Virus record (IMG/VR): IMGVR_UViG_3300028025_002044
Location: 1 to 64,000 of that record
Direction: 5' to 3' (one strand)
DNA length: 64,000 nt
DNA from: a virus
Position 1 is the stretch's first letter; each line of letters opens with the position of its first letter. The notes below the pieces were generated by a model, which did not search any database, was not told where the DNA came from, and saw nothing but the letters and a program-made list of their open reading frames with translations. A program made the translations under genes and the position numbers. Shown in pieces: positions 6,988-61,371 of this stretch.

Positions 6988-8048
6988 AAATTGCCGTCTA
7001 CACGATAGCTCTTAACGAGGAAAAGCACGTAGAGCGTTGGTACAACTCTGTAAAAGACGCAGACTACATTCTTATCGCTGATACCGGCTCGACCGATAAA
7101 ACCGTAGAGATTGCCAAGAGTCTTGGAATCAACGTAGTTAGCGTCCTACTAAAACCTTTTAGATTTGACACAAGCAGAAACGCCGCCCTAGCCGCATTAC
7201 CAGCCGATATCGATTACTGCATATCGCTTGATATGGATGAAATGCTGTCTAGTGGCTGGAGAGCTGATATGGACTCTTTAGCCGAGCTACCAGACAACAC
7301 TTCGGCCATTATCAGAGCAACGCTGACCTGGAATGTTAAGGAAGACGGGACCCCGGGGCTTCAATACGGAGCCGACCGAATCCACTCCCGCTGGGGTGTA
7401 ACTTGGCGTCAGCCAGCCCACGAGATTATCAGCACCTACGGTGACTACCACGAAGCCCGAGGCTGGGTAGGCTTTGAGATTATCCATGCGGCTGACCCCA
7501 CAAAGTCTAGGTCGCAATACCTGGGAATGCTAAAAATGGCCGTAGACGAGCAGCCATATAGCGATAGAAACGCTTATTACTACGCTAGAGAGCTTTTTTA
7601 CTACGGTAAGTACGAAGAGGCGACTAAGGAGTTTAAACGCCACCTAGGGCTTCCTACGGCTTCCTGGGCCCCAGAGAGAGCATCTTCTATGCGTCACATA
7701 GGAAAGATGAACCCTGAAGAAGCAGTAGAGTGGTTTATCAAGGCAGCCGAAGAATCTCCTGGTCGCAGGGAGCCTTTCGTGGACCTTGCCAGCCACTATT
7801 ATGCAACCGAGGACTGGGAAAATTGCTACAAATACAGCAAAAAAGCCTTAGAAATAACCGAGAAAAAGCTTGACTATATGTGCGAAGAAGCGTCTTGGGG
7901 CTCTCTCCCATGGGACTACGCGGCGTTGTCAGCTTACTATACGGGCAGACATGACGAAGCTTTAGAGTATGGAACTACTGCTCTAAGTCTGGATCCCCAA
8001 AATCAAAGGCTAATTGAGAATATTCAGTACTATCAGAGACCTTCTTAA
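6984..8048 (+). CDS. GT2 glycosyltransferase with C-terminal TPR repeats
   Basis: IALNEE, DTGSTD, FDTSRNAAL, LDMDE, HE motifs followed by helical TPR-like repeats. Confidence 0.88.
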   Translation: MKIAVYTIALNEEKHVERWYNSVKDADYILIADTGSTDKTVEIAKSLGINVVSVLLKPFRFDTSRNAALAALPADIDYCISLDMDEMLSSGWRADMDSLAELPDNTSAIIRATLTWNVKEDGTPGLQYGADRIHSRWGVTWRQPAHEIISTYGDYHEARGWVGFEIIHAADPTKSRSQYLGMLKMAVDEQPYSDRNAYYYARELFYYGKYEEATKEFKRHLGLPTASWAPERASSMRHIGKMNPEEAVEWFIKAAEESPGRREPFVDLASHYYATEDWENCYKYSKKALEITEKKLDYMCEEASWGSLPWDYAALSAYYTGRHDEALEYGTTALSLDPQNQRLIENIQYYQRPS

Positions 8049-8523
8049 GCTGCTCTTTCTTGTCAGCCTTGAGCGCGTGATACGCATTTACAGCGTTAGC
8101 ACTGGTCCTACTTCTCCACGTAAAGTCACACTCTAGGCACTGAACGATTCTCATTGTCAACCAACGACCGCCGTCCGGATTGTCCACGACCATGGCTTTT
8201 AGACTTGAAGTTCTAGCCTGGCAGTATGGGCACTTAGGAAACCTATCTCTACGAATTTCAGCACCGTCAGCATTGACTGATAAAGCTCTGCGTAATTCGT
8301 GTTCGTCATTGCCACCCCAGATTCCCCATATTTTACCTGTTTCTAGCGCCCACTTGACGCAGTCTTTTCGCACAGGGCACTGGAAACATAGATTTTTAGC
8401 TTGATGCTTGTCGTCTAGTTCATCAGAGAAGAACAAGTCTTTCATGTCTCTATTGGATGGCTTAGCGCACTCGGCGTCTTTCATCCACTCTGTATCTTTA
8501 CTTGGTTCCCAAAATGGAATCAT
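7975..8523 (-). CDS. whiB: WhiB family transcription factor with C-terminal zinc ribbon
   Basis: C-x(n)-CxxC-x5-C and GIWGG motif, then CPYC...CLEC. Confidence 0.88.
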   Translation of the reverse strand: MIPFWEPSKDTEWMKDAECAKPSNRDMKDLFFSDELDDKHQAKNLCFQCPVRKDCVKWALETGKIWGIWGGNDEHELRRALSVNADGAEIRRDRFPKCPYCQARTSSLKAMVVDNPDGGRWLTMRIVQCLECDFTWRSRTSANAVNAYHALKADKKEQLKKVSDSTEYSQLAFDFGDPDLEQ

Positions 8524-40349: not shown

Positions 40350-42380
40350 TTAGTCCTCGATTGCAGCTGCGGTTGCGCCACCAGTGGTGTCGCGTAGTGC
40401 TGCGGCAACACCGTTGATGCTCAATGAGCTGGTGATTGCAAGTGACTCGATACCAACCTTGGCAACGTTCTCGAAGGTTTCGATGAACATCTTGTAGTCG
40501 TTGGTGCCGACTAGGGTGCTGTCACGGATGATACCTAGGTCTAGAGTTCCGCCGTCTAGGAACAAGAATGTTCCTTCAGCGAACAAGTACCAGGTAATCT
40601 GGTCTGGGAACTCTAGTAGTCGAGCAGCAGAGCCAGCCTGACCAAGGAACGCATTTAGGTCAAGCGAGCTAACCATGTCAACGTTCGAGCTTGATAGGTA
40701 GCCCTTGATTTCTGCTTCGCCAACACCTAGGGTGCCATCGCCAGGCATGTTTAGAGCTAGGTCTGCTGCCATCGCGTCATAGATCCACGCAGGAACGATT
40801 GCCTTTAGGCGAGTTCCAGCATCGATACGGTGACGTGAACGGTAAGCAACAGCTGCCTTACGAACCTGCACCAAGAAGTCACGAGCAAAACCAATAAGGC
40901 TAGGAGCCTCAGTGGTAGCAACGTGCGCGTTAACAGCGGTCGAACCTGCTGAAATCTTGTCTAGCAAGTTGAGCTCTGCCTCGCGAGCGTGCTGAACAAG
41001 AGCTAGCTCGTTGTGGCGAGCAATCAACTCTGGGTAAGCACGAGTCATCAAGTTACCGAACTGTAGCTGCAAGGTTACAGCGTCAGTAGAAACAGTGTTC
41101 TCCTGTGCTGCAGTAACAGTCATGCTTAGCTTGCTTGATGGTGACGGAGTCTCAGCTGAGTCGTTAGCTGCGGTCCAAACACCAACTGCGTCGCGGTAGT
41201 TGTACGAGTTAGCTGCGGTTGCGTTGTAGGTGAGGAATGAAGGTGGGGTTACAAAGCGGATACCGCCACGGTCTGCCTGGAAGCGAGGCAATGCATCGCG
41301 AACTGGGCGGTCAGTGGTTGAACCGAGGCCGAAGATGTCGTACTTAACTTCAAATGGTGCGCCGTGGCCACCAGAAGCAACAAGTGCCTGGCTTTCCTCG
41401 GCTGCAGCAGTGATCTTAAGTGCGTTTGACTCTGCGTCGGTGGTAAGAGTACGAGACTCTGGGTACTGAACGGTTAGTGATGCAACAATGTGCTGCTCTC
41501 CGTCTCCGCCGTTTACACGACGTAGGGTGTGGAGACGCTTTTCCATTGCTGATGCAACTTCGTTCATGTCGGTTAGGTTTGTGCCAGCTGTGTAACCTGG
41601 GATGTCGGCACCAGCGGTGATTGCCACCTTGACTGCTGGCTCCGAAACTTCGATTACAGGCTGACGGTCAGCTGGGGCCTCGAAAGGCTGTTCTGCTGAA
41701 GCGGTCACGATGGCCTGCTCTTCCTGCTCTTCTGGAGCAATAGTTTCTGATGGGGTTTCTGCCTCAGTAGCTACTTCTTCAGTAACTACCTCTGCGGTTT
41801 CCTCGGCTGAAGCAACAACTGCCTCTTCCTCGGTTGGGGTTGTCTCGGCCACGCTGGCCTCAACTGCGGTTTCGGTCTCAATTGAAAATTCAGAACCTTC
41901 GGCTACAACGGCAGACGCATCTACAGAATCGTCAGAGGAGTAAGACTTGTAGTCTTTCTTTTTCTTCTCCTCGTCCTCTTCACCAGGAACCATGTCTTCA
42001 GAGTCGTCGCCCATTACTGGAGCTTCTTCCTCGTCCATTGGAGTTTCCTCAACTACTGGAACTTCCTCGACTGGAGCTTCCTCTTCCATTGGAACTTCTT
42101 CTTCCATTGGAGATTCTTCCTGGCCATCCATGCCCTTGACACGCATAGCTGCTTCAGCAGCACGAGCAGTAAGCTCTTCTGCAGCAGCTTCGCGACGCTG
42201 GACTTCACCGCGTACGGTGTCCAACATGTCAGCAAGAGATGTCATAGCGTCAACTGTTTCGGCTGTAGGGTCCTGTGATTCAAACGATTCAAACTCGCTT
42301 ACGATAGCCTCCTGAAGCGCAGCAACTTGCTCGTCACCTAGCTCCGCAAGGTTATCTACTTGCGACTTAATCTGATCCAC
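40350..42380 (-). CDS. major capsid hexamer protein with acidic N-terminal scaffold region
   Basis: LVASGG..AP, RPVRDALPRFQADRGGI, LDLGIIRDSTLV.TNDY..F.ETFE; AAGGAGG RBS and GTG start. Confidence 0.85.
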   Translation of the reverse strand: MDQIKSQVDNLAELGDEQVAALQEAIVSEFESFESQDPTAETVDAMTSLADMLDTVRGEVQRREAAAEELTARAAEAAMRVKGMDGQEESPMEEEVPMEEEAPVEEVPVVEETPMDEEEAPVMGDDSEDMVPGEEDEEKKKKDYKSYSSDDSVDASAVVAEGSEFSIETETAVEASVAETTPTEEEAVVASAEETAEVVTEEVATEAETPSETIAPEEQEEQAIVTASAEQPFEAPADRQPVIEVSEPAVKVAITAGADIPGYTAGTNLTDMNEVASAMEKRLHTLRRVNGGDGEQHIVASLTVQYPESRTLTTDAESNALKITAAAEESQALVASGGHGAPFEVKYDIFGLGSTTDRPVRDALPRFQADRGGIRFVTPPSFLTYNATAANSYNYRDAVGVWTAANDSAETPSPSSKLSMTVTAAQENTVSTDAVTLQLQFGNLMTRAYPELIARHNELALVQHAREAELNLLDKISAGSTAVNAHVATTEAPSLIGFARDFLVQVRKAAVAYRSRHRIDAGTRLKAIVPAWIYDAMAADLALNMPGDGTLGVGEAEIKGYLSSSNVDMVSSLDLNAFLGQAGSAARLLEFPDQITWYLFAEGTFLFLDGGTLDLGIIRDSTLVGTNDYKMFIETFENVAKVGIESLAITSSLSINGVAAALRDTTGGATAAAIED

Positions 42381-42514: not shown

Positions 42515-45500
42515 TTAGGTAAGTAGACGTAGCATGGTAGCCATCTGAGAAGAGATGTCTGACTGGCTATAAACATCACTGCCTGACATAAATCCCTTTA
42601 GATTGGCTGTAGCCTCTGCCGCGTCTTCCTTACCTATTTTCTCCTCGACCCTTTCGACCATATTTTTCATAAGGTCTCTGAGAGCCGGAGGAAGATCTGA
42701 GAACCTCACCTTTTGAGCTTGGTTGCTAAAAGGTAGAGGTAAGTTAGAAATGACCTTGCCAAGCTCTGCAGCTGTGGCTCGGACATTCTCCAATGAAATT
42801 TTGTTTAGGGACCCTTCGTCAAGTCGGTCTAGTAGGCTTAGTAGGTCCTGACCGGCTTTAGCCGCATCCTGATAGTCTCCAAGACCACTCATCTTCTCAA
42901 CTTCTCGAATCTGGCTGTTTACGTCAGACAGCTCGGCATCGCCAAGGTCTTCTTTTAATCTAGCTAGAACGTCTCGGAAACGACCTTTGATGTCACGCGG
43001 TTGATTTACTCCAGGAATAAACTTGCCAGGTTCTACGTCAATCTTGCCGTTAGCAACATCTTCGATATCCGTTGGCATGTCATCTATTGGAATCTCATCA
43101 ACCGCGAAGGTTTTTCCCAGGGCCTCCTGGAATGCAGCTAATCTATTGCGTAGATCCTCTGCACTTGCGGTAATAGATTCTGACTCTAGGTTCTTCCAGT
43201 TCTCTGGAACTAGGTGACGCTGGTTGAGCTGACGAGCACGCTTCTTGATGTGATTTCTCACAGACTTGCGGTCTTCAGCTTTTGAACGTCCATAAGCTTG
43301 AATAGCGTTCTTTAGGTCGTCTAGGTTTCGAATTGGGTACGAGCCGTCTGGAAGGGCCTTGCCTTCTTCAGCCAACTTGTTCCTGTCGTCGCGAGAGATG
43401 TATCCAAACTCTGACTTAGCTTCGTCAACCTTAGCTTTGAGAGATGCTACCTGAGCCTGAAGGTCTTCCTTAGGGGTAGTGATTTTCTCTAGGCGAGAAA
43501 TTCTAGAAGCCATCTCTGCAATAGGGTCAGCCTTTAGCTTAGCTAGAGTAGATGCACCTGCAGCAACGAGAGCCATGACGGCACCTGATGCAACGCGAGC
43601 ACGAGCAATCGGGAAGCCAGGAACGTTTACCTGACAAACTGCAACAAGCTCAAGGGCCCCACGGATTGGACGCCAGTCACCAGAAGGAGCTGATGCACGA
43701 AGTGCACGAATCTGCTCCGGACGAGCATCTGGACGTAGCGAACCAGCGACCCAAATGCCGTAGGCATCCTCCCCCGCGTGAACATCAGCAATTGCTGAAG
43801 CGGTGTCGTCATAGTGCTTAACGGCTTCCATTGCACTAGCCTCTAGAGAGGCGTGGCCTCCGGCAAGTGTAAGCTGACCAACTGGCATGTCCTTGCCAGT
43901 GTCAGTGCGTACAACACCAGTGTGGAAGTAGGCGTAGTTGCTCTTTGAGCGTGGTGGCTTAGTGCCATATGCCATTCCAATGTGGTCGACGTGCCAAGCT
44001 GCAATGTGACCAAATACTCTACCCATGTCATCAACAGTTAGAGGGGTTGGGCCTTTTAGCTTAGGGTTTTCGAACCACTCGGTAGGCGGTACGACGGGGA
44101 TTGCGCCAGCGACAATACCGCAAGCAACTAGTGCCTGAGCGTCCGCAGCATCCGCGTCGTCAACGTAGACTCCATCTGGAATCATGATTTCCTCCTGGTA
44201 GGTGCTGTTCATTGTTGGGTCGTCGTTTATTAGCGTAATTTTGCACTCTTGGAAAGCAGGCTTTGGTACTATTGTAGCGGCCATTACGCGGGCTTTATTT
44301 ATAGTAAGTTTCTTTTTGCCTATTTCTTTGTCGTCATCTTCAGACGAAGCATCACTAGACTTATCCTCGGTTGCCTCAAACTTGTCCATGTCGGCAGAAA
44401 TGCCGCGAATAAATCCGTTCTTTATAAGACGTTCTACTTCCCTGCCGTATGGCCCATTGTCTAGGACACCATATGCATTTCCAATTCCGTCATTGGTTCT
44501 TTCGACCATGTCGATTCGACCAACTACCACCGAGCCATTGTGCCCGTCGCCAGTTTTAATCTGCCACAAAAGCGGAAGAGGTAGCTCCCTAAGAGTGATA
44601 GAGCCCTTACTAAACTTACGACCATCTCCAGACTCTACGCCTTCAGGAATTAGCAAAGGAATGTAGAACCTAGACCCGCTATTCTCATAGTCAGACGAGG
44701 CTACCATCCCTAGGCGTTCCTTGGCTGATTCAGCTCTAGCGGATAGCTCAGACTTAGCGATAATTACTGACGTGGAGTTTATTAGTTCGGTGCTAAATAC
44801 GTTCCTACCACCGCGACGTTTTCCGTAGCCTTTTCTGTTGTTCTTGTCACCCGTCCACATCCCAGTCATTTCTTTGTGGCGCAGAGCACAGTAGCCTTTA
44901 GCGCGTGGGCCTAGGTACTTAGATAGGTTTCGTACACATCGGGTCCAGTCTCCGCCGGTACCCCAGCGTATCTTAAGTCCGCCTTTACCCGTGGTCCAGT
45001 AGCGGCGCAGCTTCTCTGCGTTTCCTCTATTTCTGTCTGCACCGCCGGCTGCAGTGACAGATAAAACTGATTTGAAAGTCTCCGCTAAAGGGCTATTTTC
45101 GTCAATAGAATCAAAGAATTTATTGCCAAAAGTGTCTATAATTTCTTGGTTAGGTCCCCACAGAACCATCATCAAGTGGTCCAAGCTAAAAATACCAGCT
45201 GCAGTTATAGTAGCGTCGTCCACCTGAGTAAGAACATCATTAAGAACGGTCTTGTCTAGAGGAACTACTGGAGGAGGGGTGGCAGACTTTAGGTCGTTTA
45301 AAGTTACCTCGTCCCTAATCCACTTTCCTTCATCTCTCTTATAAGTCATTGGCTCTGATGAAGTAGAGCTAGCTGGCACTAGCGCAATCAAATCAAGCAC
45401 AGCTCTAGGGTCGTCTTCTGCAACGATAGCCATGTATAGTGGCTGAACGTCAGAAGTTTCTGGCGTCATTTGATAAGCCTTTTTAGCTGCCTTTTTTGTT

Positions 45501-47137
45501 GCAACTGGAGCTGCAACAACCGGGCTAGCCCAGCCTTCTTCATCTTCAGACACCTTCGGCCCGCCCTCAGAAGCTTTCTTCCACCTAGTTATTAGCGGGT
45601 GTTCCGAGTTGTCCTTGATCTTTTTCTTTGACTCTTCTTCAGAGTCATCTGCTTCTCCAGCGGCAGTTAATCCTGCTTCAGCCGCCGCTGCACGCTGTGA
45701 TTGAACCCAGCCGGACCAGTTGTACAACAAGTCATGCAAATCGTTCTTGGTGAGAGACGGCAAAGTGCCAGGAATTCTTGCGTACGGTCTGTCAATAGGA
45801 GTCCTAGGCTCGCCTAAAATACCAGACAGGTCTAGAGGCTTGTCTAAGTCAGAGAAATGTAGGGGTTCCTTAAAATCTTTTTCTTCCACGGTGTCACGAG
45901 CCGGAACTATTTGCTTACTTCCGTCGCTTCCGGTAACCTCTACATTTCCGTTACCAACGTTAGCGTTTGTGATTGTTCCGCGATTGGCGCTGTTGTCCCC
46001 AATAACGACCCTTTGACCCTGCTTAGCGAATCGTCCCAAGGCATTTCTAGTCTGCTTAGTAGCGTTCTGAGAACGCTCTTCTGGGCTATAAACTCCGTCA
46101 TCCGGGTTAACTGCAGCGGCAGTAAGAGTGCTGTCAATCATTTCCCAGTCAATACCGGCAGCCGCAAAGATAGCTAAACCAGCCTCTTCTTTATCGATTT
46201 CTTCGATAGAAATTCGGCTGTAAGGCTTTTGGTGCAGTTTTGCGCAGACGATAATCGCTGAGTCCGGGTCGATTGGTATGTGAGACTTTTTTACCGTGTC
46301 GTATGGGTCGTCTAATGCTTTGTCATAGGTCCAAATGTCTGAGTCTATTTCTGCAAGGTCGTCCCAGCATCCGTCGTCCCAAACGTACACCGACCCGTCT
46401 ATATCAATTTTGTAGACTCGGTCAATGCCAGAGCCGTCCATTCGAACTCTGGCCAAAAACTCTGGAGCCGCAGACGTCCCAACATACATGGCTTTTCTAA
46501 AAGCATCTAAGTCTATGGCTTCGCTAGGGGTATCCTCTAAGATATATCCGCCAGCAGTTCTAGCAGCAGCTTTTTCTTCTCGCTCGACAATAGCTCTAGC
46601 CCAACGCCAGGCGGTGTCTCCACCCCAAAGTGCCCAAGCGATGCGACCGTTAGATGGAAAGTTATCTTCGCCTGGTGACCAGCCCTTGCCCTGCTTGTCC
46701 ACCTCGTGGCGTGGAAAGTATTTTGCGATGTGGCGAACTTTACGGATTCCAATTTGTCCGCCTCGAGCAAGAGTGCGTGCAGTGTTTAGACCTACCGAAG
46801 TTCCGCCCCTGTCGTGCTCTTTTCTCCACTCTAATGCCTTCTTGGCTTCAGACTGCGCACCCTTAGGAATGGTGTACATTCTGTCCCCACCCGAGGAGGT
46901 AATAACATTTACGTTCAAGTCTGAGAGCGATGCTCCAGCTAACTCGTATGCAGAGCTAGGAATCTCGGAGTGGTCTAAGGTAAACCATTCTCTAGAAGAA
47001 GAAAGCTCTTCGAGGTCGCCAGACTCCGTAATAAGGTTACAGTCTAGGTCAAGAACAGCCGCATTATCGCCAACGGCGAATAGCGCAAGAGAGCCATAGC
47101 TACCCATATATTGCGTAGTATTTTCGGCACCACTCAT
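42515..47137 (-). CDS. multidomain capsid maturation protease protein
   Basis: PEGVESGDGR...LPLPLLWQ...H.GSV.VG.ID...GISADMD protease-like region; PxxWF.NP..GRVFGHIA domain; directly upstream of capsid. Start MSGA (47137) preferred over 47170. Confidence 0.8.
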   Translation of the reverse strand: MSGAENTTQYMGSYGSLALFAVGDNAAVLDLDCNLITESGDLEELSSSREWFTLDHSEIPSSAYELAGASLSDLNVNVITSSGGDRMYTIPKGAQSEAKKALEWRKEHDRGGTSVGLNTARTLARGGQIGIRKVRHIAKYFPRHEVDKQGKGWSPGEDNFPSNGRIAWALWGGDTAWRWARAIVEREEKAAARTAGGYILEDTPSEAIDLDAFRKAMYVGTSAAPEFLARVRMDGSGIDRVYKIDIDGSVYVWDDGCWDDLAEIDSDIWTYDKALDDPYDTVKKSHIPIDPDSAIIVCAKLHQKPYSRISIEEIDKEEAGLAIFAAAGIDWEMIDSTLTAAAVNPDDGVYSPEERSQNATKQTRNALGRFAKQGQRVVIGDNSANRGTITNANVGNGNVEVTGSDGSKQIVPARDTVEEKDFKEPLHFSDLDKPLDLSGILGEPRTPIDRPYARIPGTLPSLTKNDLHDLLYNWSGWVQSQRAAAAEAGLTAAGEADDSEEESKKKIKDNSEHPLITRWKKASEGGPKVSEDEEGWASPVVAAPVATKKAAKKAYQMTPETSDVQPLYMAIVAEDDPRAVLDLIALVPASSTSSEPMTYKRDEGKWIRDEVTLNDLKSATPPPVVPLDKTVLNDVLTQVDDATITAAGIFSLDHLMMVLWGPNQEIIDTFGNKFFDSIDENSPLAETFKSVLSVTAAGGADRNRGNAEKLRRYWTTGKGGLKIRWGTGGDWTRCVRNLSKYLGPRAKGYCALRHKEMTGMWTGDKNNRKGYGKRRGGRNVFSTELINSTSVIIAKSELSARAESAKERLGMVASSDYENSGSRFYIPLLIPEGVESGDGRKFSKGSITLRELPLPLLWQIKTGDGHNGSVVVGRIDMVERTNDGIGNAYGVLDNGPYGREVERLIKNGFIRGISADMDKFEATEDKSSDASSEDDDKEIGKKKLTINKARVMAATIVPKPAFQECKITLINDDPTMNSTYQEEIMIPDGVYVDDADAADAQALVACGIVAGAIPVVPPTEWFENPKLKGPTPLTVDDMGRVFGHIAAWHVDHIGMAYGTKPPRSKSNYAYFHTGVVRTDTGKDMPVGQLTLAGGHASLEASAMEAVKHYDDTASAIADVHAGEDAYGIWVAGSLRPDARPEQIRALRASAPSGDWRPIRGALELVAVCQVNVPGFPIARARVASGAVMALVAAGASTLAKLKADPIAEMASRISRLEKITTPKEDLQAQVASLKAKVDEAKSEFGYISRDDRNKLAEEGKALPDGSYPIRNLDDLKNAIQAYGRSKAEDRKSVRNHIKKRARQLNQRHLVPENWKNLESESITASAEDLRNRLAAFQEALGKTFAVDEIPIDDMPTDIEDVANGKIDVEPGKFIPGVNQPRDIKGRFRDVLARLKEDLGDAELSDVNSQIREVEKMSGLGDYQDAAKAGQDLLSLLDRLDEGSLNKISLENVRATAAELGKVISNLPLPFSNQAQKVRFSDLPPALRDLMKNMVERVEEKIGKEDAAEATANLKGFMSGSDVYSQSDISSQMATMLRLLT

Positions 47138-47194
47138 GTCTAGAATCCTCCGATAGCGGCGACAAGCCAATGGCTATTCATATAAACCTAATCT

Positions 47195-47223: not shown

Positions 47224-50200
47224 TTAATACTTTATCCTATAGGGGATTTGGTTTGCGTTTAGCTTTTGAAGCAGGTCAGTGATTTCGGCAGAGCTCTTGG
47301 TTTCGCTTAGTTTAGCCATATCAATCGATATGGCATCTTCATCGTTGTCCTGAGACTCGGCCAAGCTGGGGTAGTCAATGGCTTTACGGCTATCATCCAA
47401 CTCTACTGACTGCATAAACGAGTACCCCATTTTGGTGAGCTTGTCGCTGTGATAAATCTTCCTGTTAGTTAGTTTGTTAGCAAAGGCAAGTAGTCCGGTG
47501 GCTAGGTGACGGCGTTGGTAAGGTTCGTTGGTGTAGATACCGTCAATGTACATTTCATTTGCTAGACCGTCGGCCATAGGGTCGCCAATCTTAGTGCCAA
47601 ATGTGGCTACAGCGCCGGCTGACGGATTTGCTGGGTCATAAGCATCTATCCATATGTATGTATCTAGCGCCTGCGGGTCGTAGTCACTTTCCTTCAAAGA
47701 AACTTTGGCAGATAGTTTATATGGACGGCCGTACCTGTCTTTGTATGACGCAGTTATTTTGGTGGTACTCTCTACAACCGTAGGAGTCTCGCGCTCTGTT
47801 GTAGTAGCACCGTCGAAGTCTATGTCTAGATTTTCGGTAGCCTTTTCCATTATATTATCTTCACGCATGGCAGGCACCGAGAACCAGGAATCGTAGTGCT
47901 GGCGTCTAATAGATTTTAGGTTCTTTACCCTATTTGAATTAGAACCAAACTGTTTTTCGGCTTCGGCAATCATGTCTGCATATGACTTCAACTCGGCTTC
48001 TTGATAGTCCTGCAGCGGAATACCGTAAGGGCCTGAAGTAAAGTCATATGCTCGCTCTTTGTCTAGGTCTAGGTTCGGGTCAGCCGGGTCGAAAGGCTCG
48101 CCGCCAAATTTCATTAGCATAGGTGCAGCACTGTCAGGGCTGTCTGATTCAGTGGCAGCGTCTGCAAATCGCTTAGCGTTTCGGTCTACCTTAACATCCG
48201 TCATTCTAACTGGACGCTCTAGATATAGCCCATCTAGGCCCTTTACGCGGCTTAACGCAGTGTAAAGCTGGCCTGTAGCAAATGCACCATCTCCTAAATC
48301 AACCTTTAGATTGCTAATGGTTTTGCCTTGAAGCTTGTGGATAGTAGCTGCCCAGGCGAGCATCAAAGGAATCTGCTCATAGGTTGCTTCAGTAAATGGA
48401 GTCAGTTTATTGGTGACCTGGTTGCTAATGCTGTCTACTTGCTGACTGGCATCGTAGCCAACTTTATCCCACATGCTAGGGTAGACGTCATAAACGTTGT
48501 CTCCAACTCTAACCTTGACGTGGTCCTCTTCGAGAGCTACCACTTTTCCGATGGTTCCGTTTACCCATCTGCGAGCGGTCTTCTGGCCCTGACCAGACTC
48601 CTGATCTACGCTGTCTTTAGAAGAGCTAGGGGTGTCATTCCTGGTAAACATAACCTGAGCCCCAACCTTAAGGAAGAGCTTTTCCGGAGCAGGAAGCATG
48701 TCAAATGCTGGCTGTCCGGCACCACCAAACTCTCCGGTATATGTCTGAGATTTGACGTTTCCTAGCTTGTCCATCTCCTCTTGGTTAATTTCGTCGGCTA
48801 GAGCGTTAGTTGTAACGGCGTAGATTAGGTCATTAACCGATTGAGCCACTGGACGCATGCCAGCTTGATTGATGAAATCTAAGTCTTCCTGAGTAAATCT
48901 GCCTACTCGGATGTTGTTTAGGACCTTCTTAAATTCAGGGTCTGATTGACGGAACACTTCGCTAAGTTCATAGACTTCTAGAGGCTGGTCAACCCAAGCT
49001 CTGGCGTCAAAGAAGAACATGCTCCTGTAGTTCTTCTCCATGTAGTCCTTGAGCTGAACGTCGCGCTTACCTACGAATGGAGACAGCTGGTATACGTCAC
49101 CAAAACCAACAAACTGCACACCACCGAATGGTACGAATGGCTTGCCTTTTACATTCCTCAAAATTCTGTCCATAGCGTCTAGTAGGTCCGCTGAAACCAT
49201 GGATATTTCGTCTACAACTAGGGTGTCTAGAGCCGCTAGGGCAGCCCTAATTTTAGCCTTCTTTTTCGCATTTCCAATAATTAGCTGGCTTGCAGGAGTC
49301 TCGCCGTACACAATACCAGGCTTAAGTCCAAACAGAGAGTGGATGGTCGTGCCGCCAACATTTTCGGCTGCAGTTCCAGTGAATGACACTACAGCAATAA
49401 TTTTTTCAGTAAAGTCACGGAAGAATTTAAGCAAGAATGATTTACCGGTACCGGCTTTACCGGTAATAAATACAGGGCTCTTAGTGCTTTCTAGGTGGTT
49501 GTATAGCCACTGTTGCTCCGCAGACAGGTCGCCTTCTACAGTCGCCCGCTGTTCTTTATTTTTAACTGCAGGAATTTGGATAGGCGAGCCGTCTAAGTTA
49601 TTCTTAGGTACATAGTTCTCTAACTTAGACTTATCAAATCCTTCTGGAATGTCTATGCCTGACACAGGCTCGCCGTTGGCAATTCTCTTATCTAGAAGTG
49701 CCCCTAGAAGATCTTTCTTTACGGCCTCGACTAAGTTAGCGTCTATGAGCGGAAGCACACTCCAGAGTTCTCTAGCACGCTGGTCTGAAACCACACCTGA
49801 CTCTTGAAGAATGTCCTGAACTGTTCTTAGGTCGGCAGTAGTTGGAGGGTTTACAGTAACCTGAGTCTCTATAGAAGGAGAAGTGTTCTCCTCCCCATTC
49901 TCGTACTTCATAAACATTGGAGTGGTTTTTGGCTGGTCTCGTAGGTAGTCCAAGAACTGGTCTACGGTCATGTTGCCGACGTTTTCAGGGACAGGTCGCT
50001 GCTGGGTGACAGGAGCTTCCTGTATAGGAGCGTCCGATCTTTTTCTAGGGGCGGCCATTTTGTCAGCTTTTTTGCCGTCAATTTTTTTAGCTCGTAGGCT
50101 GTCAAACTTAATTAAGTATTCTGCTAAGTCTTTAGTTCCAGACTTGGTTAGGAACTTGCCCCTGACGGACTCGAGGACAGCTTTGTACACTGGCTCTGGT

Positions 50201-53200
50201 AGGTATCCCCAGTTGTATAGGTTAGTAGCCTTTATGAAAATTAAATCTAAGTCATCCTTAGTAGGCATCATGTCATCGCTGTGGAAGGCTAGCTCTCCGG
50301 GCACAACCGAGTATCTCTGCTTTTGGATAGGTAGGAAGTCAGACAGAGGGATATTCTCGAATGAGAAATCTCCGTTTTCATCAGCGATTGCAATAGTTAG
50401 AGCGCCCTTGGCAGGGAATCCTACAATCTTACCGCGCTTGTCTGTGCCCTTAATAACGCCAAACATCGTGTCGCCCACCAAGATTCCGTCGGTACCTGGA
50501 GTTATGAAGCTTTCGGTCACGTTTTCAATGTCCGCAGGGTTAGTGATTTTAAGAGTGTAGTATCGAATATCGCTGTAGCCAGCTACGCTAGGTAGACCTG
50601 ACTGCACTCTTCTAACACCCTTCTCATCGAATTCGTCATCAACAAAGAATCCGGTATCGTACGAGTCCTCTGAGCCGTCTAGGTATTTAACAATTAGGCC
50701 GGATGAGGTACCTTCACCAGGATTGACCATCTCTCCGTAGACCACGCCAATTTTACCGGTCTTCTTGTTCATAACATAAGCACCCGGGTGTAGCTGCTCT
50801 AGGTCGTACTGAGAAGTCTCCTCAGAAGAACTCTCTTCCGGCCTAAAACGTTCAGGCACACTCTTAGGCTCAACTTTTGATGACCAAACACGAGGCTCAA
50901 ATTGCATGAACATGGGCTTGCCCTGGCCAGTGGCCGGAGTAAGCATGTCTTCATTGTTGAAAATAAAGTACGGGTGGAATGAGTCTGGCCAACGCTCTGC
51001 ATTTGCTTCCTCGGTGTCAAATCCAAATGGAGCTATTGCCCAGCCCTTATCAAGCTTTTTAGAGTTTGAGCTAGCTACGTAGTTAGTAACTACCATTGTA
51101 GGTAGGAACGGAACGTTTGCCTCTATAGCGGCGGCTATACGGTGATTTCCGTCTAGCACAAATGCAGTCTTATTTGCAGGATTGTACGAAATAATTATCG
51201 GAGTTGCTGGGAGTGCGCCAAGTCCCATAGACCTGACCATCTTTTCGATTTTGTCTTTGTCGAGGTCTGTGTTGCCAGGCATTCCTGCTAGGGCGGATGG
51301 TTTTACGTAGCCAACGACCGAGTTAGATGAGCCTAAGCCGCCATCAGGGTCAGTGGAGATGTCTAGCCCATTATTGAACGAATCCGCGTAGGAAGCGGTT
51401 AGGTAATCCAGGTCTTGCTCGAAATTAGCAGCTCTAGTAATTCCGGCAGGAGTTTCAAATTCTCTGTCAGGGATTGACTCTGTAGAGACTAAGTCAGCTT
51501 CAATGTAAGTGCTGAACGCGTTAGGAATCTCATAGCCTTCCGAGTCAAGTCTAGGGGAACGGCTAACTTCTAGGACTCGAAGCTTAGCTCCAGCGTTGAG
51601 AAGCACCTCGCGCTCACCGTCTTTGTATGTCAGACCCTGAGGCATGACAATTGCATTTGAGCCTTTAGGGGCACGGATGATTAAGAAGAATCCTTCTTCG
51701 TTAGATAGGAGGCTGGCCGAGCCAGGACCAAAGTCGTCGTAAGCCACTACTGGAGACATACTGGTAGAACTGAATGACGGCAGTGTAATCTCATCGCCAG
51801 GCTGAGCATCGATTAGTGCATCGTGCTGAGCATCTCCCGGGTTTCCAGTAGAACCGTGGTAGAGATACATGTTTCTGTCTAGCTTGGCTTCAGGCTTGGC
51901 AAATGCAGCAGTCAGACCACGGAGCATCGACTCTGTCATGTCAGCAACCGTGCGAGACATTTCTTTGCCCTCGAGTAGGTTAGAAATCCATCGCCACCCG
52001 CTATAGCCGTAGTTCTTGAGGGCAGACTTTTCTTCAGCAGTAAAGATGTCTTTATCTACTGGATCGGCGTATGTCCTAGGCATGTCGTAGTAGCCGTCCC
52101 AGATTACAGGGTAGCCCTGCTCGTCGTCTTTCCACTCATCCGAGAAGTTCATGAACTGGAACTTAGGGTCTTGGAAATGTTTAGCTAGGTTGTATTTATC
52201 TGCTTTGCCGAATACGAGACCATCGTATGCACTCTTTAGAGCACCCACGTGAGCCATGAACTTAGTTTTTGCGAGCTCTTTTGTGCCTTCGGATGAATTA
52301 GGGTTATTCCTAGTAGATAGGTAGTCTTTTTCAGCATTTAAGGTGCTTGAATAGATGCTTCTAATAAATGCCGAGTCGTCTTCACCTAGGTTGGTGCCTA
52401 CCGGTGTCAGGCCGTTTTCATAGAATGAGCGGCGTCTGTTGAACTCTACTATAAGTTCAGGTTCTTCTGCAGGCTCAGGGAAGTTAGGTTTGCTGGATTC
52501 TGAAGAAGCCATGCTTATAACTTCGCGCGGGCGAACGCCAATTGGGTTCTTTCCAGCAATTTTTTCGTTATAGAAGTCGACAAAATCTCTTAGGTACGGA
52601 GGGATGACACCTTTTTCGGTAACCCACATGTACATGGCGTAGAAGTATTCTGCAAAGTTTTCTCGGACACTGGTTGCGCCGTAGTTAGACATTGGCTTAT
52701 CGCCAAATTTCTCTTCAAACTCCCGGTAGAGAGGCATGGACTCATCGCCCATATACAGTGAGCCAATTCCATGGCCGTATTCGTGAATTTGAGTCCTAGA
52801 GAACCTGTCTTTAGCGTCAGGTCCACCCATTACGGCATTCGTCCCCCCTACCTGAGCATTTTTGTTGCCATAGCCAGCGGTGCTTAATCCAAAGAATACG
52901 CCGTGCTCTCCAGCTGTCGCGGCAATCCCACCGACATCTTCATTATCAATTAACGTCTCGTAAGTGAAACTTCCGTTAGGGAATACAGTGTAGTAAGTCG
53001 GAACGTTGCCTAGATTGTTAAGCGCACCTAGAACCCTAGCATTTGCGACTATGTCTGACAGCATTTCAGGGGTAGCTATTGCATCTTTTACCCTGATGAA
53101 TTGGTTAGTTCCGTCTATCTGGAATACGCGGTATGTAGACTGGTCGCTAGAAGCTTGCTTAACCTTAGCGATAAAACCTAGTCTTAGTGCGTCAATATCC

Positions 53201-56200
53201 TCTTGCGACATCCGAGAGAGTTCTGCTGGAGAGTACATATTCTCAAGGTAGTTTTTTCTGAAGTAAGTTTCATTAAAGTTTCCGTTAGCATCTACTAGAG
53301 ACGGTACAAGACCAGACTCGGAGTCTGTACCGGCTAGCCAGTTGCCCTTAGAGTAGCCCTCCATGGAACGTTCCAGCTCCCTGAGGTTCTCTCCCGTAAT
53401 CTCTACTAGGCCGTCAACGGGGACGCCTCCCACGGAAGCACTAGGCATACGCATTAACATCGGCTTAGAGCGGTTCTTCTTTTCGACAATGTGCTCGACC
53501 ACAAGATCAAATACGTTGACGGGCTTGACATTCATGTCGGATATAAGTGCGTCCATGTAGTCGGTAAATTCTTGGTTTGCCGGGGCCTGATTAGCCATCC
53601 TCGAGTACAAGAAGTCAAAGAATAGCTCTGCAAATTTTTCTGAGTGGTCACCTTCACCGTATGAGGATATGTAGGTATTTTCAAATCTCTCTTTGAAATC
53701 TTTTGCTAACTCAAATACTTCGTTATTTCTCAGGGTGGAACCGAATATTGCTCGGTGATAGGCGTGGCCATACTCATGTAGGAAAGTTAGTACCGACTCT
53801 GGGATGTTTCCAGAGTTGTGTAGTCGACGACGACCGCCGGGGCCTTCAGTAAATCTAGGGTCAAATCTATTCTCGTAGAAAGATTCTTTTCTCAGAGCGA
53901 TGTTTAAGTTGCCGCCAGTAAAGGTGAAAAATGCAGATGTGCCCATGAATTCTGGCATATCTTGGTACAGCAAGGCCATCTCTTCGTTGGTAATTAGAGA
54001 TACTGTTAGTTTTCTATTACCGACAGGTGCAATTTCTCGCGCCTTTGTAATCATCTTAGCGAGCTTCTCTAAGTGAGTAGGAGTTATTTCCACGCCATCG
54101 GCTTTATTGTAAGTAATGTAGCTATTTTTACCTACCTTTAGGGCAACCATGTTTTCTAGAGATGATCGGTCTTGCATCTTAGCTTCAAAAAGAGCTTCTG
54201 CTTCCTCGAGCTTAGCTAAATTCTCTTCAGTAGGGTTCTGATATATCTCACTTAATTTATCGGGTCCACCTAAAGCTGAAGCTAGGAATTTATTTCTAGC
54301 ATAGTTGACATCAATAGATGCTTTTTTATTGTTGAGAACAGACTTAATTAGCCTCTTCTTTTTTGACCCGGTAACTTCTGATACATCTACCCCGCGCATT
54401 CCGCTTAGCACGCTGTCAGAAATGGTAGAACCTGCATCATCAATAAATCTTTGTAGGCTTAGCTTTGTTGAAGGAGTATTTCCACCACGCTTATCGTTGG
54501 CTTTGATAAATTCAGAAATATACTCCGCTGCCTGAGCCCTAGTCATACCCTTAATAGGTGCAAGAATTCTTTCTTGCTCGTCGGTGTCAAATCCAGACTT
54601 CTCTAAATACTTTCTAAAGCCATACTTGTCGGTACCATTTTGCTTGTCGGTAGCCGGCCCATTGGGGCTAATTCCTGATAGGAATTTATTCATTCTCTCC
54701 GAGTAACGTTTTGCTAGAGCATCCTTGTCCAGTGCTTCTAATTTTTCGTTAGGTTTTTGGCTAGCCATTTCAAGTGAGCGCATGACAAGGCGGAATGCGT
54801 CCTCAGCATCTGCATCCGCACTGTGCCATCTAGTAGTGTCAAATCCTAGGAACTTAGCTACATACCCAAGGCTAGTTGTGGATACAAAATTGCCGGAGCC
54901 CTTCTCGGTCTCTTTTTTAGGCCCGTCTACGCCATTCTCAGGGTCATACTTAGGGATGATGGCATCGATAAGGTCCTTAGAGTCCACAGTTCCAGCTACG
55001 CTGAAATCAGTTACACCGGCTTTGTCAAGCATTCTCTGGAGAACTTCAAGGTCAAACGGTACGTTCTGCCCACCAATAAGAGGGTTGTTGCCCATGAACT
55101 CAATCATTTGACGTACGGCTTCTTCGGTGCTCATCTGCTTTGACAGCCATTCGTCAGTGACTAGGTCGTCACCAATAACCTCTCCTGTAGGAGACACCAC
55201 ATCCCTCTTGAGATTAGCTGCTGACCATTCTCCTAAAGGAGCTTCAGGGTTGAGGTAGATATTAAATCTGCCAGTAACCTCGCCCTTTTCTACCTTAACG
55301 ATACCGACCTGAACGGCGTTGTTCGGCTGGTTGTCTCCGTCGTAATCGCTGATACCAGTGGTCTCGGTGTCGAAGTAGTAAATAGGAGTGTCTAGGTTCT
55401 TAATGAAGTCTAGAACCTCGGCCCAGTTCTTGCCTTGGACAGCGTCAAGTAGAGACCCCGTGAACGCGCCCGGAGTAGGCTGACGGTCGCGGCCGACGTC
55501 CATAGTGGTTGGGTTTAGAACCATGCCGAGCGGTGTGCCAATATTTTTATCGGACAAGAATGACATAGCAGCTGGCTTAGGATTGACTTCTTGTACATGT
55601 ACTGGAGGTAAGTCAGAAAGACTCTTTGTAGGGACATATCCATCCAACTTGGACATGTCGTAGCCCCTAGGCGCACGTTTTGCTAATAAGTCAGATACCG
55701 GATACCCATTTGCAATTCTCCAGTCAAGTTCTAGATTATCTAACTTGCTTATAAGATCAAAGACTTTTGCTTTGTTCATGCTAGGCAAATCGCCAGCAAT
55801 CTTTTTAATTTCTTCTGGAGACAGCAGGCCAGGTATAGATAGTCTCCTAGCTACACTCTGTAGCTCTTTCTTAGTTGCAACTTCCGAAGAAAAATCAAAA
55901 CCATCTTGGAATAGGAATAACGGTCTGTACGGTTCAACATCTTCGCCACTCTCTACTCTAGCGTCGTAGTCAGCCCTACGCCTGTCTTCCATTTTTCTAA
56001 GCTCGCCAAGTATTCGATCCTTCTCCGCCTGGGTGTTCCAAGCAGCCATAGTGAAGAGCTTAGGTGAGTTTCTCTTACTAGGATTCATAAAGTATACGCG
56101 GGTAGTTCGTACCCGAGTCTCTTGCTTGCCAGGCTTTCTTGGCTCTGGTCTTGGAGCCGGGGTGGGTCTAGGTTCTGGAGTAGGAGTCGGTCTAGATGGC

Positions 56201-59200
56201 TCGCCACCTGGAGCTGGAGTGCTTGGTGCAGTAGACCCATCTCGCTTAGCGATGCTAAGTTTTGATGTCCTGCGAACGCGGAGACGTCTAGGTGTAGTGT
56301 CTCCAGGTCGAGTTATCTCAATGAGCAGAACGTTAGGGTCTTTATCGTCCGGCTTAGGCTTGCTCATTACTCTAGCAAAGCCACGAATTCTGTCCCAGAC
56401 TAGGTCACCGACTACAATTTCGCTACCCTGAACGGTCTCTAGCTCACGGTCTGGAGTGAGTTCTCTCTCCTCGTCTTCATCCTGCTCCTCGAACTCGCCG
56501 GTGAGTGGGTTAACCTGACTGACCATAGGCATAGAGAAAGACTCGACAATACGCTGATCAGTGTCGTCTTCGTAGACCACATCTACGTAAGAGATGTAAT
56601 CCTTGCCTTCCTCCCGATATTTTATTTTGCTTACAGACTTTACCTTTTTCCATACAGAAGGTTTGCCGTCTTCTTTAACCTCAACAAATGTGCCAGGAAC
56701 GATTTCCTCAAAGTGCTTTAGTTCGTGAGGACCAGCGGTCTTAAGTTCTTCAATCTCGCGTTGCTTAGCTTCGTCTACGGCAGGTTTTGCTTCGGGCTCC
56801 GGGGACCTAATACTGTCCAGTTCTTCTTGAGTTTTAGGCAGGTTGTCGATGCCTTCAGCTTCAATTATTCCTCTGTCGCTAAGAGCTTGGCGCACTCTAT
56901 TCACTACTATAGTAAGTAGATCGTCCGATGCCTCGAGTACAGTGTCACTCTTAGACTGAAGATCATTAAATACTTTATTAGCTTCAGCGATTGCTTCAGC
57001 TAAAATGTCTTTAGCTTGGCTAACAAATAGATCCACCTCGTCATCGGTAGCCTCCCACTTACCAATAGCAGTAACAAATCCGGCATCATTACCAAAAGCA
57101 TCGAAAATTTCTATACGTATATCAGCTATTGTCTTACCAGTAGCCGGACGAAACATGGAGTCGTCGACACGTACAGCGCCACCTGCAGATTTTCCAACCA
57201 CTGCGGGCAATACTACATTTTTATCCCACTTGGGTTTGTCCGCATCAGACGCAGCGTCAATCAAATCTCTTATAGCACCTACGTTAGTAGTAGCGGGGAT
57301 GAATGGCTTTGGAGTAGGGGTAGCGGCTGGCTGGTCGGCTTCCGGCTCAGGCTCTGCGGCCGGCTCTTCGGTAGGCTGGTCTTCCTCTGCCTCGGGCTCT
57401 CCAGAAGTATCCTCTGATGCAGCTTTTTCTTTTTCAAGATCGGCCAAGAACTTGTCAATATCTTTTGTTCCAAAGTCCTTTCCTTTTATCTGAGCAATAA
57501 GCTCTTCTTTACGCTCTTCAGTGATGTAATCTTCTACATAAGCATCTATAACTGAATCTACAAGCTTATCTTTTTGAGATTCATTTAGAGGCTCGCCGTG
57601 CTTTTCTTTCCAGGCCGCAAGTTTTTCCCGCCGGGACTTAAGCTGGTCTTGTCTTTGACTATTTACGGTTTCGATAAGTCTTTCTTTGTAGTTATCTACA
57701 TAATCGAGTAGTCGGTCTTCTCCAACTGTATCTAGAACTATTCTGTTATAGACTTGAGACCAGTAATATCTATCATTAATATATGCAATAAGAGCGTCGG
57801 CGCTAGAATTTAGTATGTCTTCGGCATCTGCATTACCCTCGGAGGACTGTCGCTCATATCTTTCTACTAAAAGATTCATAGCTTTAGACACAACGGTATC
57901 TATAAAATCAAAATATATTCTCAGGTCGGACTCTATTTTGTCTTCACTGATAGAGTAATATTTGTCGGTTGTAATCCTACTAAATAGCCTATTAAATTTC
58001 TCTTGAACATCTTTTGGTAGAGATTTAATCACTAAATCAAGTGCATTTGGTACCGATTTACCGTCTTCAAGAATTAGCTCGGTTGAAGACTCCGGCTTAT
58101 CTTCTTCTGCCTCTGCTTCTGACTCTTCAGCTGGTTTTTCACCGCTTAGTTCGGCTTGGACTAGCTCTAGGTCCTTTGTGCCAAACTTGCCGTCGCGCAT
58201 CTGATTCTTAATTTCAGTCTCGCGCTCTTTAGTAATGATGCCATTAGCTACGGCATCCTTCAGCTGGCCTAGGAAGCCGCTCCTCTGAGACGGACTTAGT
58301 ACGCTACCGTGTAGCTCTTCCCACGAGGCTTTCTCTGCTGCATCAGCATCATCTTTTTTCTTTTTTGCAGCTTCTTCAGCGGCTTTCTTTTCATTGTCTC
58401 GGTTTACCCACTTTTGAATTTCTGCAGGCATATTATCAACTGCATCGGCAATTGCATCAGAAATATTGTCAAGCAACGACTTCCACTCTGATGGAGTTAG
58501 GTCGGCGTTCATTTCTAACTGATGCCCAGCTTTGCCTAATACAAATGATGGAGTATCTTCTTTGCTGAGAGATAAGGCTAAAGATATAGCTTTTCTAATT
58601 GCTTGCCTAATAACTAGATCTTGGTACTTCACCCAATCCGTGGCTTGCTGAAGATTATTTGGGTCAAACTCTGGTTGCGGTAAGTCGTCACCTCTTTTTA
58701 CAAAAATTCCTAGCGTTCTATCCTGAAAACGAGAAAACTCGACTTGCATAGAGTCAGGGCCAAGCTGTCCGTTGCCCGCTTCCCCTGTTCTTTCGCCGCG
58801 GGTGGGGTCAGCTAGTTCGCCGTTGGCTAAGCGTCTAGGCTCAGACGTTGATACTTCAGTTTCTTGCTCCGGCTCTGGTTCTGGCTCTGGCTCTGGCTCT
58901 GGCTCCGAGGCTGAAAGAGACTCTTTAAGGGCGTTAAGAAGAGTCTTGGCGTGCTGGGAGATAGGAATGCTTTTGTTTTCGGAGTCTAGATTAATTACTA
59001 GTGCGCCGGTTACATCGTCCACCTGAGCAACGAGAGTGTACCCCTCGTGATTGCCAAATACAATTCGGTCTACGGCATCGCCATTTGGAGTACCCTGATC
59101 GATATCTCCATGGATAACTACATTGCCGCGCTTATCAATCGAGTAGCCAACGCCATTTCCAAGACTTCCGCTGTCCCCCGGCATTCCAGAAATGTCTTGG

Positions 59201-61371: not shown

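Follow-up and report, generated by a model that had tools for sequence, protein, structure and literature searches.

The open reading frame (ORF) at positions 47224-61371 of the viral DNA analysed here encodes a protein of 4715 amino acids (aa) that is probably, at a rough estimate of 0.65, a polyvalent effector that an uncultured actinophage, equipped with a flexible tail of the siphovirus type, carries in its virion and injects together with its DNA to disable the host. This DNA, referred to below as the window, comprises positions 1-64,000 of IMG/VR record IMGVR_UViG_3300028025_002044, a 76.4-kb linear contig of 47% G+C that is approximately 57% complete. A virion-borne effector is suggested by the conserved order of the head genes, an N-terminal leader held in common with the prohead-protease fusion, the avoidance of cysteine and the existence of a separate replication module. 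The protein is the second of two tandem giants, a feature of the locus that had escaped the preliminary description of this DNA.

A giant gene within the head operon

The preliminary description reported one 14.1-kb ORF next to the protease and capsid genes, and the arrangement is as it stated, with the protease fusion and the major capsid protein (MCP) following directly. The genes concerned are:

47224..61371, minus strand: the whole giant ORF (giant 2), 4715 aa, a single uninterrupted frame with a GTG start
42515..47170, minus strand: prohead-protease fusion, 1551 aa, directly 3' of the 4715-aa gene
40350..42380, minus strand: MCP, 676 aa, with an acidic N-terminal delta region, just past the protease fusion
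61371..61921, minus strand: two small ORFs of 90 and 92 aa, paralogues of one another (E 2e-9), with an AREELK..G.DP..W.KN box
62177..64000, minus strand, running to contig position 71524: the other giant (giant 1), 3115 aa, 348 kDa, 1 Cys, preceding the 4715-aa gene
Contig positions 71528-73729, outside the window: 733-aa fusion of a Dps/ferritin-like protein with DUF5824, directly after the portal gene, Cys-rich (15 Cys)

The 4715-aa product has a mass of 523 kDa, a pI of 4.9 and no Cys. An AGGAG ribosome-binding site lies 9 nt upstream of its GTG start, which overlaps the stop codon of the preceding 92-aa ORF in the sequence TAGTG. A search of 5.8 billion proteins retrieved seven full-length relatives (4324-5255 aa, 34-62% identity), originating in ENA, JGI and Logan assemblies, all of which align across the full length of the protein, and on one IMG/VR contig the same protease, capsid and tail genes come after a copy of 63% identity. 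Because orthologues of 56-62% identity on independent contigs keep the frame open over its whole length, the ORF is a real gene and not a chance frame. Among deposited phage records, megablast of the giant gene gave no match, and tblastn against 50,697 such records gave matches restricted to the N-terminal ~130 aa (residues 33-162) and the helicase. The whole architecture has no counterpart in those records, in keeping with the earlier suggestion that the combination of domains may be undescribed.

The gene is co-oriented with, and tightly packed between, the portal gene and the protease and capsid genes. The complete order of the head operon is portal, Dps fusion, giant 1, the two small paralogous ORFs, giant 2, protease fusion and capsid, with the two giants and the protease fusion occupying 28 kb. 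Nine related loci, those of isolated Microbacterium phages among them, keep this order: the portal and a Dps-like protein come first, then one giant or two (1146-6023 aa) with the leader, then the protease fusion and the MCP. Where a related locus covers the stretch concerned, a homologue of the Dps/DUF5824 fusion has the corresponding position; the locus of Microbacterium phage Zooman is the exception.

A leader domain common to the giants and the prohead protease

The feature that defines the giants as a family is found at their N-terminus:

60868..61356, minus strand: leader, residues 6-168, a helix motif followed by a five-strand SH3/Tudor-like barrel

The helix motif reads ..P-I-T-A-G..S-A-E-R-R-A..Q-L-R-D-x-x-G-R-F/W-x-E-M-G, and the N-terminal tblastn match mentioned above falls at the start of the large gene that fills the same slot in Microbacterium phages, for example Zooman gp70 (1764 aa). 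Searched against 1.84 billion cluster representatives, the leader profile recovered 517 proteins at E<=1e-3, mostly of 1-6 kaa, and 313 at E<=1e-10. The 149 representatives listed have a median length of 1942 aa, with 28 longer than 3000 aa and a maximum of 6004 aa; in 134 of them the leader begins within the first 40 residues. The profile matches the 4715-aa giant with E 4e-63 and the 3115-aa giant with E 1e-22 (residues 169-276), while residues 348-389 of the protease fusion (46004-46129) align with the first 40 positions of the profile (E 1.5e-5). Six relatives have a locus that includes this portion of the protease fusion, and in all six the helix motif recurs at approximately residues 340-390.

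An AlphaFold2 (AF2) model of the leader, with a predicted local distance difference test (pLDDT) score of 77 and a core above 90, consists of two helices and a small five-stranded barrel. The leader has no sequence match in the PDB, its best BFVD match (E 1.5e-3) is an unnamed protein, and a second search, for shorter leader homologues, returned no named proteins. Across 19 leader-family members checked, no Pfam family covers the domain, one of them giving a weak match to DUF7746; Phage_Mu_F was detected neither in these members, nor in the whole 4715-aa protein, nor in its residues 1-270 at E values up to 5. On these profile comparisons it is the leader, not a MuF domain, that defines the giant family, a point missed earlier. 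Since the prohead protease must enter the procapsid, the element that it shares with the giants provides the best available argument for head targeting, and the leader would on that argument be a head-targeting device.

Cysteine avoidance and a separate replication module

The giants are almost devoid of Cys (0 of 4715 residues in giant 2 and 1 of 3115 in giant 1), as are the seven orthologues, all of which have none. At the rate for the rest of the proteome (0.59%), some 28 Cys would be expected in 4715 aa. The trait extends to the leader family, with 118 of the 149 representatives being Cys-free, including 48 of the 71 that reach 2000 aa or more. Non-structural proteins of the phage contain 1.0% Cys and its cytoplasmic primase, DNA polymerase and helicase 0.8-1.3%, against 0.20% in tail and head proteins; most tail proteins are strongly depleted relative to the replication proteins, and the probable tape measure protein is Cys-free throughout:

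29889-34955, minus strand: probable tape measure protein, 1688 aa, 0 Cys, with hydrophobic segments

By their Cys level the giants group with the extracellular virion proteins, which they surpass in depletion, and not with cytoplasmic enzymes. Such a composition would suit a chain that survives outside the cell and passes unfolded through the tail. The 4715-aa protein also lacks transmembrane segments, having no hydrophobic stretch long enough to span a membrane.

The replication module (primase, Pol I, helicase and two exonucleases) lies apart from the giants, at 1-17 kb, and the helicase and exonuclease of the giant are therefore extra. This bears on the proposal that the giant is not packaged at all, acting instead as a late cytoplasmic multi-enzyme of the producer cell (in host DNA degradation, genome maturation or superinfection exclusion) and residing in the head operon for reasons of timing only. 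Helicase, exonuclease and ParB-like domains are indeed typical of DNA metabolism, and packaging of the giant into the virion is itself predicted. Nevertheless, the genome already possesses a complete and separate replication and recombination module; the leader is common to a prohead protease that must enter procapsids; the near absence of Cys differs from the content of the cytoplasmic enzymes given above; and a family-wide leader joined to variable, toxin-like cargo (Zeta toxin, ADP-ribosyltransferase (ART), kinase) fits delivery. We regard an unpackaged enzyme as unlikely.

Enzyme domains and other modules of the 4715-aa protein

Pfam was run on ten segments of the protein at E values up to 5, and the zincins and the ParB-like domain required comparison of profiles with the PDB. 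From the N- to the C-terminus, all on the minus strand, the modules that follow the leader are:

60574..60864: residues 170-266, conserved beta-rich region after the leader, 74-83% conserved in orthologues, SH3-like by eye
59737..59994: residues 460-545, first copy of a small helical repeat, from internal cross-matches and alignment
56704..58926: residues ~816-1556, acidic Pro/Glu/Lys-rich, largely helical stretch, conservation 0.14-0.5, with gaps in relatives
55657-55899 and 49636-49899: further copies of the small helical repeat
54793..55374: residues 2000-2193, DEDDh 3'-5' exonuclease (Pfam RNase_T, PF00929; phrog_192)
53452..54174: residues 2400-2640, zincin 1, HEYGH 2532, Y2571, E2578
52492..53304: residues 2690-2960, zincin 2, HEYGH 2863, Y2897, E2904, a paralogue of zincin 1
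51562..52044: residues 3110-3270, VIP2/iota-type ART, His3172 at the Arg position, STS 3202-3204, E-x-E 3253-3255
50902..51414: residues 3320-3490, ParB/Srx-like domain, DGNHR 3407-3411, invariant in orthologues
48139..49536: residues 3946-4411, Pif1/Dda/RecD-type superfamily 1B (SF1B) helicase, Walker A GTGKS 3974, Walker B DE 4054-4055
47227..48114: residues 4420-4715, C-terminal module, an EPFDP box plus a GNAT-like fold, present as three tandem copies in relative L007

All of the enzyme calls of the preliminary description (a DEDDh exonuclease, two HEYGH zincins, a VIP2-like ART, a ParB-like domain, a Pif1-like SF1B helicase and a GNAT) find some support, those for the ParB-like and GNAT domains in part. 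The exonuclease clears the RNase_T cut-off (32.0 bits against 24), and its acidic motifs and His (D2001, E2003, D2107, H2183 and D2188) are invariant in eight orthologues. The helicase is well above threshold in both Pfam (PIF1, E 2e-24, 86.7 bits against a cut-off of 25.9) and PHROGs (Dda-like helicase, phrog_325, E 5e-74), with its GxGKS, DE, QGxT and SR motifs invariant in orthologues. The ART scores 41.2 bits (E 1.5e-10) against a cut-off of 23.4 for ADPrib_exo_Tox (PF03496); its profile matches CdtA, iota toxin Ia, Vis and VIP2 in the PDB with E values from 2e-14 to 1e-9, and both S-T-S and E-x-E (E-R-E at 3253-3255) are retained.

Both zincins carry HEYGH followed by S-x-Y-G...E-x-F-A-E, invariant in orthologues, and neither has a match in the ten-segment Pfam run, the Pfam lethal-factor family included. 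When a four-sequence zincin profile was compared with the PDB, anthrax lethal factor (LF) was the sole match (E 1.7e-6). The alignment spans 71 profile columns and LF residues 677-750, and within it HExxH, the Tyr of S-Y-G and the Glu of E-x-F-A-E coincide with the LF active site. The existence of two paralogous LF-like zincins is thereby confirmed at the level of motifs, the active-site core alone being aligned.

For the ParB-like domain, the DGNHR motif is invariant and the top ESM Atlas cluster is annotated ParB_N (0.95, 182 shared features), but Pfam is blank and the PDB matches are sub-threshold (E 0.09-0.3), all of them to the ParB/Srx fold; a ParB/Srx identity is probable. The GNAT assignment is likely, although the weakest of the domain calls. 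Pfam gives E 0.037 at motif A, and profile matches to N-acetyltransferases lie near E 1. The AF2 model (pLDDT 65) finds AAC(6'), AAC(3) and Hpa2 as its best Foldseek matches (E 0.04-0.3), and VIA returns ESCO1 (Z 7.2, root-mean-square deviation 4.0, 111 aligned), PAT GNAT (Z 7.1) and many other GNATs (Z 5.5-6.5). Fold and profile leads are consistent, although the scores are weak and motif A is degenerate. Among the remaining modules, residues 170-266 have a weak DUF4314 match as their sole Pfam signal, and the small helical repeat has no PDB match, its ESM Atlas leads being MobL and DUF3072, both below 0.9.

Altogether, one chain unites at least seven catalytic-type domains with repeats. With this domain count, its characteristic domains and its place beside the portal and head genes, the protein as predicted falls within the operational definition of a phage polyvalent protein (PMC5512222, PMC9503650), and the earlier use of that term was apt.

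Variable cargo behind a constant leader

Giant 1 contains, in addition to the leader (residues 169-276), a DEDDh exonuclease, a UvrD-like SF1A helicase and, at its C-terminal end, ArdC-N together with an MPTase-PolyVal zincin. PHROGs labels this last pair an anti-restriction protein; in Pfam, ArdC-N is named after the anti-restriction factor ArdC and MPTase-PolyVal after polyvalent proteins.

Comparison of domain content across related phage genomes, as the preliminary description had proposed, revealed that the same slot is filled by leader-bearing proteins with shuffled cargo, spanning 1146-6023 aa. In local profile searches, no more than 10-19 of 157 leader-bearing proteins contained the cargo domains of the window. 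Seventeen further members, taken as a sample, yielded UvrD helicases (6), PI3/PI4-kinase-like domains (3), RNase_T (2) and one each of ART, Zeta toxin, GNAT and WYL. In relative L007, from IMG/VR, a 6018-aa ORF (L007:10030-28086, plus strand) combines the leader, an adjoining exonuclease, three tandem GNAT-like modules and a ParB-like domain; a further giant (L007:1-9588, plus strand), of at least 3195 aa and ending in an ArdC-like module, lies ahead of it. In another relative the slot holds two separate ORFs, with two ARTs in the second. Three orthologues (P0002, P0003 and P0005) have extra whole modules inserted exactly before the first junction motif described below (P0001 residue 267). By eye, the inserts of ~240 aa in P0003 and P0005 resemble a canonical R-S-E ART, and that of ~660 aa in P0002 appears kinase-like. 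Polymorphic cargo behind a constant leader is the pattern of delivered effectors.

Apart from T4 Alt, the P1 Dar proteins and the N4 virion RNA polymerase (vRNAP), few injected phage proteins have, to our knowledge, received study. Such proteins act before any phage gene is read. For a large family absent from both Pfam and PHROGs, the present locus suggests a compact rule that is open to testing: a protease-shared leader, Cys-free cargo and motif-marked junctions. If the leader is a packaging signal, it would become possible to load chosen proteins into actinophage particles, and metagenomic sequence would by itself allow virion cargo to be predicted. The shuffled cargo (exonucleases, SF1A and SF1B helicases, zincins, ARTs, kinase-like domains, Zeta toxin, ParB and GNAT) constitutes a set of candidate counter-defence enzymes for Actinobacteria, which include Mycobacterium and Streptomyces and in which phage defence is under active study.

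A Met-rich motif at module junctions

The 4715-aa protein has six copies of the motif P-[QMS]-[LF]-M-x-F and the 3115-aa giant has four, against approximately 0.1-0.3 expected by shuffling; the motif was not found in the other head-module proteins checked. Every copy sits between recognizable modules. Those in the 4715-aa protein, all on the minus strand, are:

60559..60573: junction motif 1, QLMAF, residues 267-271, just before which relatives insert modules
53446..53460: junction motif 2, MLMRM, residues 2638-2642, a copy found only in the window's protein
52144..52158: junction motif 3, QFMNF, residues 3072-3076
50899..50913: junction motif 4, MFMQF, residues 3487-3491
49903..49917: junction motif 5, MFMKY, residues 3819-3823
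48106..48120: junction motif 6, MLMKF, residues 4418-4422

Codons differ between the copies, and conservation is therefore at the level of the peptide; an origin of the junctions as recombination microhomologies was rejected on the same ground. Also rejected was a pairing of the motif with zincins across the whole leader family, the motif being confined to the close clade. A resemblance to beta-clamp-binding peptides (QLxLF) was noted by eye and fits poorly at position 4. The motif could be a putative processing site or a docking peptide.

A second motif, [LIVM][TV]A[AGS][AGS], is over-represented in the protease fusion (8 copies against 0.31 expected) and in the MCP (5 against 0.25, three of the five lying in the acidic N-terminal delta region), and is a better candidate than the Met-rich motif for the cleavage site of the prohead protease. 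The idea that it also punctuates the giants was not supported by the counts there.

A bolder form of the effector reading, which we hold as tentative and on balance doubtful, is that the leader represents a dedicated procapsid-targeting domain for more than 500 Cys-free giants in actinophage heads, and that the present protein is a self-processing polyprotein, cut at P-[QMS]-[LF]-M-x-F by its own zincins or by the prohead protease to free approximately eight enzymes in the newly infected cell.

Proposed course of infection

As a virion-borne effector, the giant would be made late, along with the portal, protease and capsid proteins, and recruited into the procapsid via its N-terminal leader, the same element that occurs in giant 1 and the protease fusion. 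It would be stored in the head as a chain without Cys or membrane segment, would thread out through the tail along with the DNA, and its modules would act in the new host ahead of any phage gene expression. There, the DEDDh exonuclease, SF1B helicase and ParB-like domain may escort or shield the DNA as it enters, or else attack nucleic acids of the host, while the two LF-like zincins, the ART and the GNAT-like domain may inactivate host defence or housekeeping proteins. The Met-rich junctions would serve either as cutting sites that release separate enzymes or as a recurring docking peptide. We count as a precedent gp27 of Microbacterium phage Burro, a protein of more than 4400 aa that is virion-associated and probably processed (PMC7302621).

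Several observations weigh against this course of events. Packaging, ejection, processing and targets are all inferred, and the enzymatic activities are predicted. At 870 kDa, each pair of giants would be a heavy load for one head. Structure searches with the leader returned generic Tudor, KOW and SH3 matches (Z<=6.3) and no link to a known capsid-targeting element. The Met-rich motif, being confined to the close clade and absent from P0008, L007, DSL-LC01 and Zooman, provides no family-wide rule, and the alternative [LIVM][TV]A[AGS][AGS] is not enriched in the giants (no strict matches; five of a relaxed form against 2.0 expected). Two of the enzymes also deviate at key positions. The strand of the ART that should bear the catalytic, NAD-binding Arg reads L-Y-H-G-S in this clade, His3172 aligning with the Arg of CdtA and of the two ART copies in relative L005, which keep it, and the domain may accordingly represent a variant or weakened enzyme. 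GNAT motif A (Q/R-x-x-G-x-G/A) appears in the window as Q-R-R-H-L-A, with His for Gly, whereas the copies in relative L007 have R-R-G-[LI]-A after a Q, V or R. Because of these two substitutions, some modules may be inactive or have changed function.

These same substitutions speak for the possibility that the giants are packaged in a mainly structural capacity, as an internal core, a DNA-spooling body, an ejectosome or a trans-envelope conduit, their enzyme-like domains being secondary or degenerate. Approximately 40% of the chain (residues 170-1950 and 3490-3940) is non-enzymatic, made up of beta-barrel and small helical repeats together with long helical stretches of acidic character, and the giants' avoidance of Cys resembles that of the tape measure and capsid proteins. 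However, the catalytic residues of the exonuclease, both zincins and the helicase, together with the ParB motif, are invariant at orthologue identities of 34-62%, no hydrophobic or transmembrane segment capable of forming a channel was found in the giant, and the cargo varies widely among relatives with the same capsid genes, unlike a structural core. A mainly structural role thus appears improbable.

Relation to known systems

Polyvalent proteins contain from two to 15 functionally disparate domains per chain, ArdC-N being the commonest non-catalytic one; in Iyer 2017, their zincin metallopeptidases (MPTases) are unified with LF by HHpred, and ART, ParB and GNAT modules are discussed along with predicted packaging into the head and injection (PMC5512222). 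In the giant, too, many unrelated effector domains share one chain beside portal and head genes, and the domains correspond to those in that account, with a zincin MPTase, ART, ParB, GNAT and helicase here and ArdC-N plus MPTase-PolyVal in the neighbouring giant. Word searches of the same paper (PMC5512222) returned 'exonuclease' once and no mention of Pif1/SF1 helicases, and turned up neither an absence of Cys nor a Met-rich motif. The present giants also differ in being arranged in tandem and in having a leader that belongs to no MuF, portal or Pfam LPD/DUF family.

According to Jamet (2017), MuF toxins reportedly consist of a conserved N-terminal head-associated domain and polymorphic C-terminal cargo. 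Like these toxins and the MuF-VIP2 fusions of actinophages (Jacobs-Sera 2020, PMC7302621), the giant occupies the slot between the portal and the protease and capsid genes and carries variable toxic cargo that includes a VIP2-type ART; it differs from them in its length of 4715 aa, in having no MuF domain and in having at least seven cargo domains rather than one. The resemblance raises the prospect of a MuF-type polymorphic toxin for bacterial competition, which a temperate phage or a particle of phage origin would direct against rival cells and not use to establish infection. Such a toxin would likewise pair a conserved head-associated N-terminus with polymorphic cargo at the C-terminus; the genome has a WhiB gene, the relative DSL-LC01 has been called lysogenic, and the two small coupled ORFs upstream could be immunity-like. 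Yet MuF was detected neither in the giant nor in the leader-family members checked, the chain has many cargo domains instead of one terminal toxin, most of the cargo consists of DNA-handling enzymes adjoining an ArdC-type anti-restriction module, and no integrase was seen in the 76-kb contig, itself ~57% complete. We consider a competition toxin very improbable.

In the Dar system of phage P1, which also includes DdrB, DarB is a head-packaged helicase/methyltransferase of 2255 aa that protects incoming DNA in cis, and packaging depends on the N-terminus and on head-assembly partners. The giant is likewise a large helicase-containing protein, predicted to be packaged in the head, but it has no methyltransferase, is unrelated in sequence and belongs to another phage lineage with another leader. 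In T4, the capsid-targeting signal is an N-terminal peptide of ~10 residues that is handled by the prohead protease. Alt and the internal proteins thus offer a model for how the leader could work, although the element shared here is a helix motif plus a barrel domain of ~160 aa. Alt itself is a head-packed, injected ART, and in the N4 vRNAP (3500 aa) an MPTase region is needed for encapsidation (PMC5512222).

With the N4 vRNAP, Burro gp27 and the giants of cluster EK, the present protein would share the status of a giant virion-carried protein; those proteins have few recognizable domains and come from different phage types, and tblastn of both halves of the 4715-aa protein against phage records placed no record of Burro, cluster EK or N4 among the matches listed. 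Anthrax LF (peptidase family M34) shares with the zincins HExxH, the Tyr and the Glu that is the third zinc ligand; the similarity is confined to the active-site core, and the substrate-binding domains of LF are not present here. In 2020, genes encoding more than 4400 aa were called the largest in actinobacteriophages (PMC7302621), a size that is exceeded by the 4715 aa of the present protein and by relatives of up to 6023 aa. The concept of a polyvalent, head-packaged and injected protein is not new; what is new is the leader family, the tandem giants, the Cys-free composition, the junction motif and the combination of a DEDDh exonuclease, two LF-like zincins, an ART, a ParB-like domain, an SF1B helicase and a GNAT-like domain.

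The source virus and neighbouring genes

The MCP shares 66% identity with the one from Actinomycetia phage DSL-LC01; identities of 53-56% are found with the MCPs of ~190-kb Microbacterium phages, and weaker matches number hundreds in Mycobacterium, Gordonia and Arthrobacter phages. A hallmark gene of actinobacteria and their phages, whiB, is also present:

7975-8523, minus strand: WhiB-family protein, match at 8284-8487, Pfam E 4e-19, 8 Cys

Given these capsid matches and the WhiB gene, it is reasonable to call the source virus an actinophage, an assignment to a group of hosts and not to a particular one.

The 90- and 92-aa ORFs are translationally coupled to each other and to the 4715-aa giant. 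Neither has a family match; a role as chaperone, adaptor or immunity-like protein is conceivable. Around the 4715-aa gene, sites resembling promoters or terminators do not rise above shuffled expectation. A perfect GC-rich hairpin (GCCCCC-TTTC-GGGGGC) is located at 62147-62162, just past the stop codon of the 3115-aa gene, and promoter-like sites in its vicinity do not exceed chance. Among the early and replication genes, beside WhiB, lies one further gene:

6984-8048, plus strand: glycosyltransferase, phrog_13126, E 2e-107

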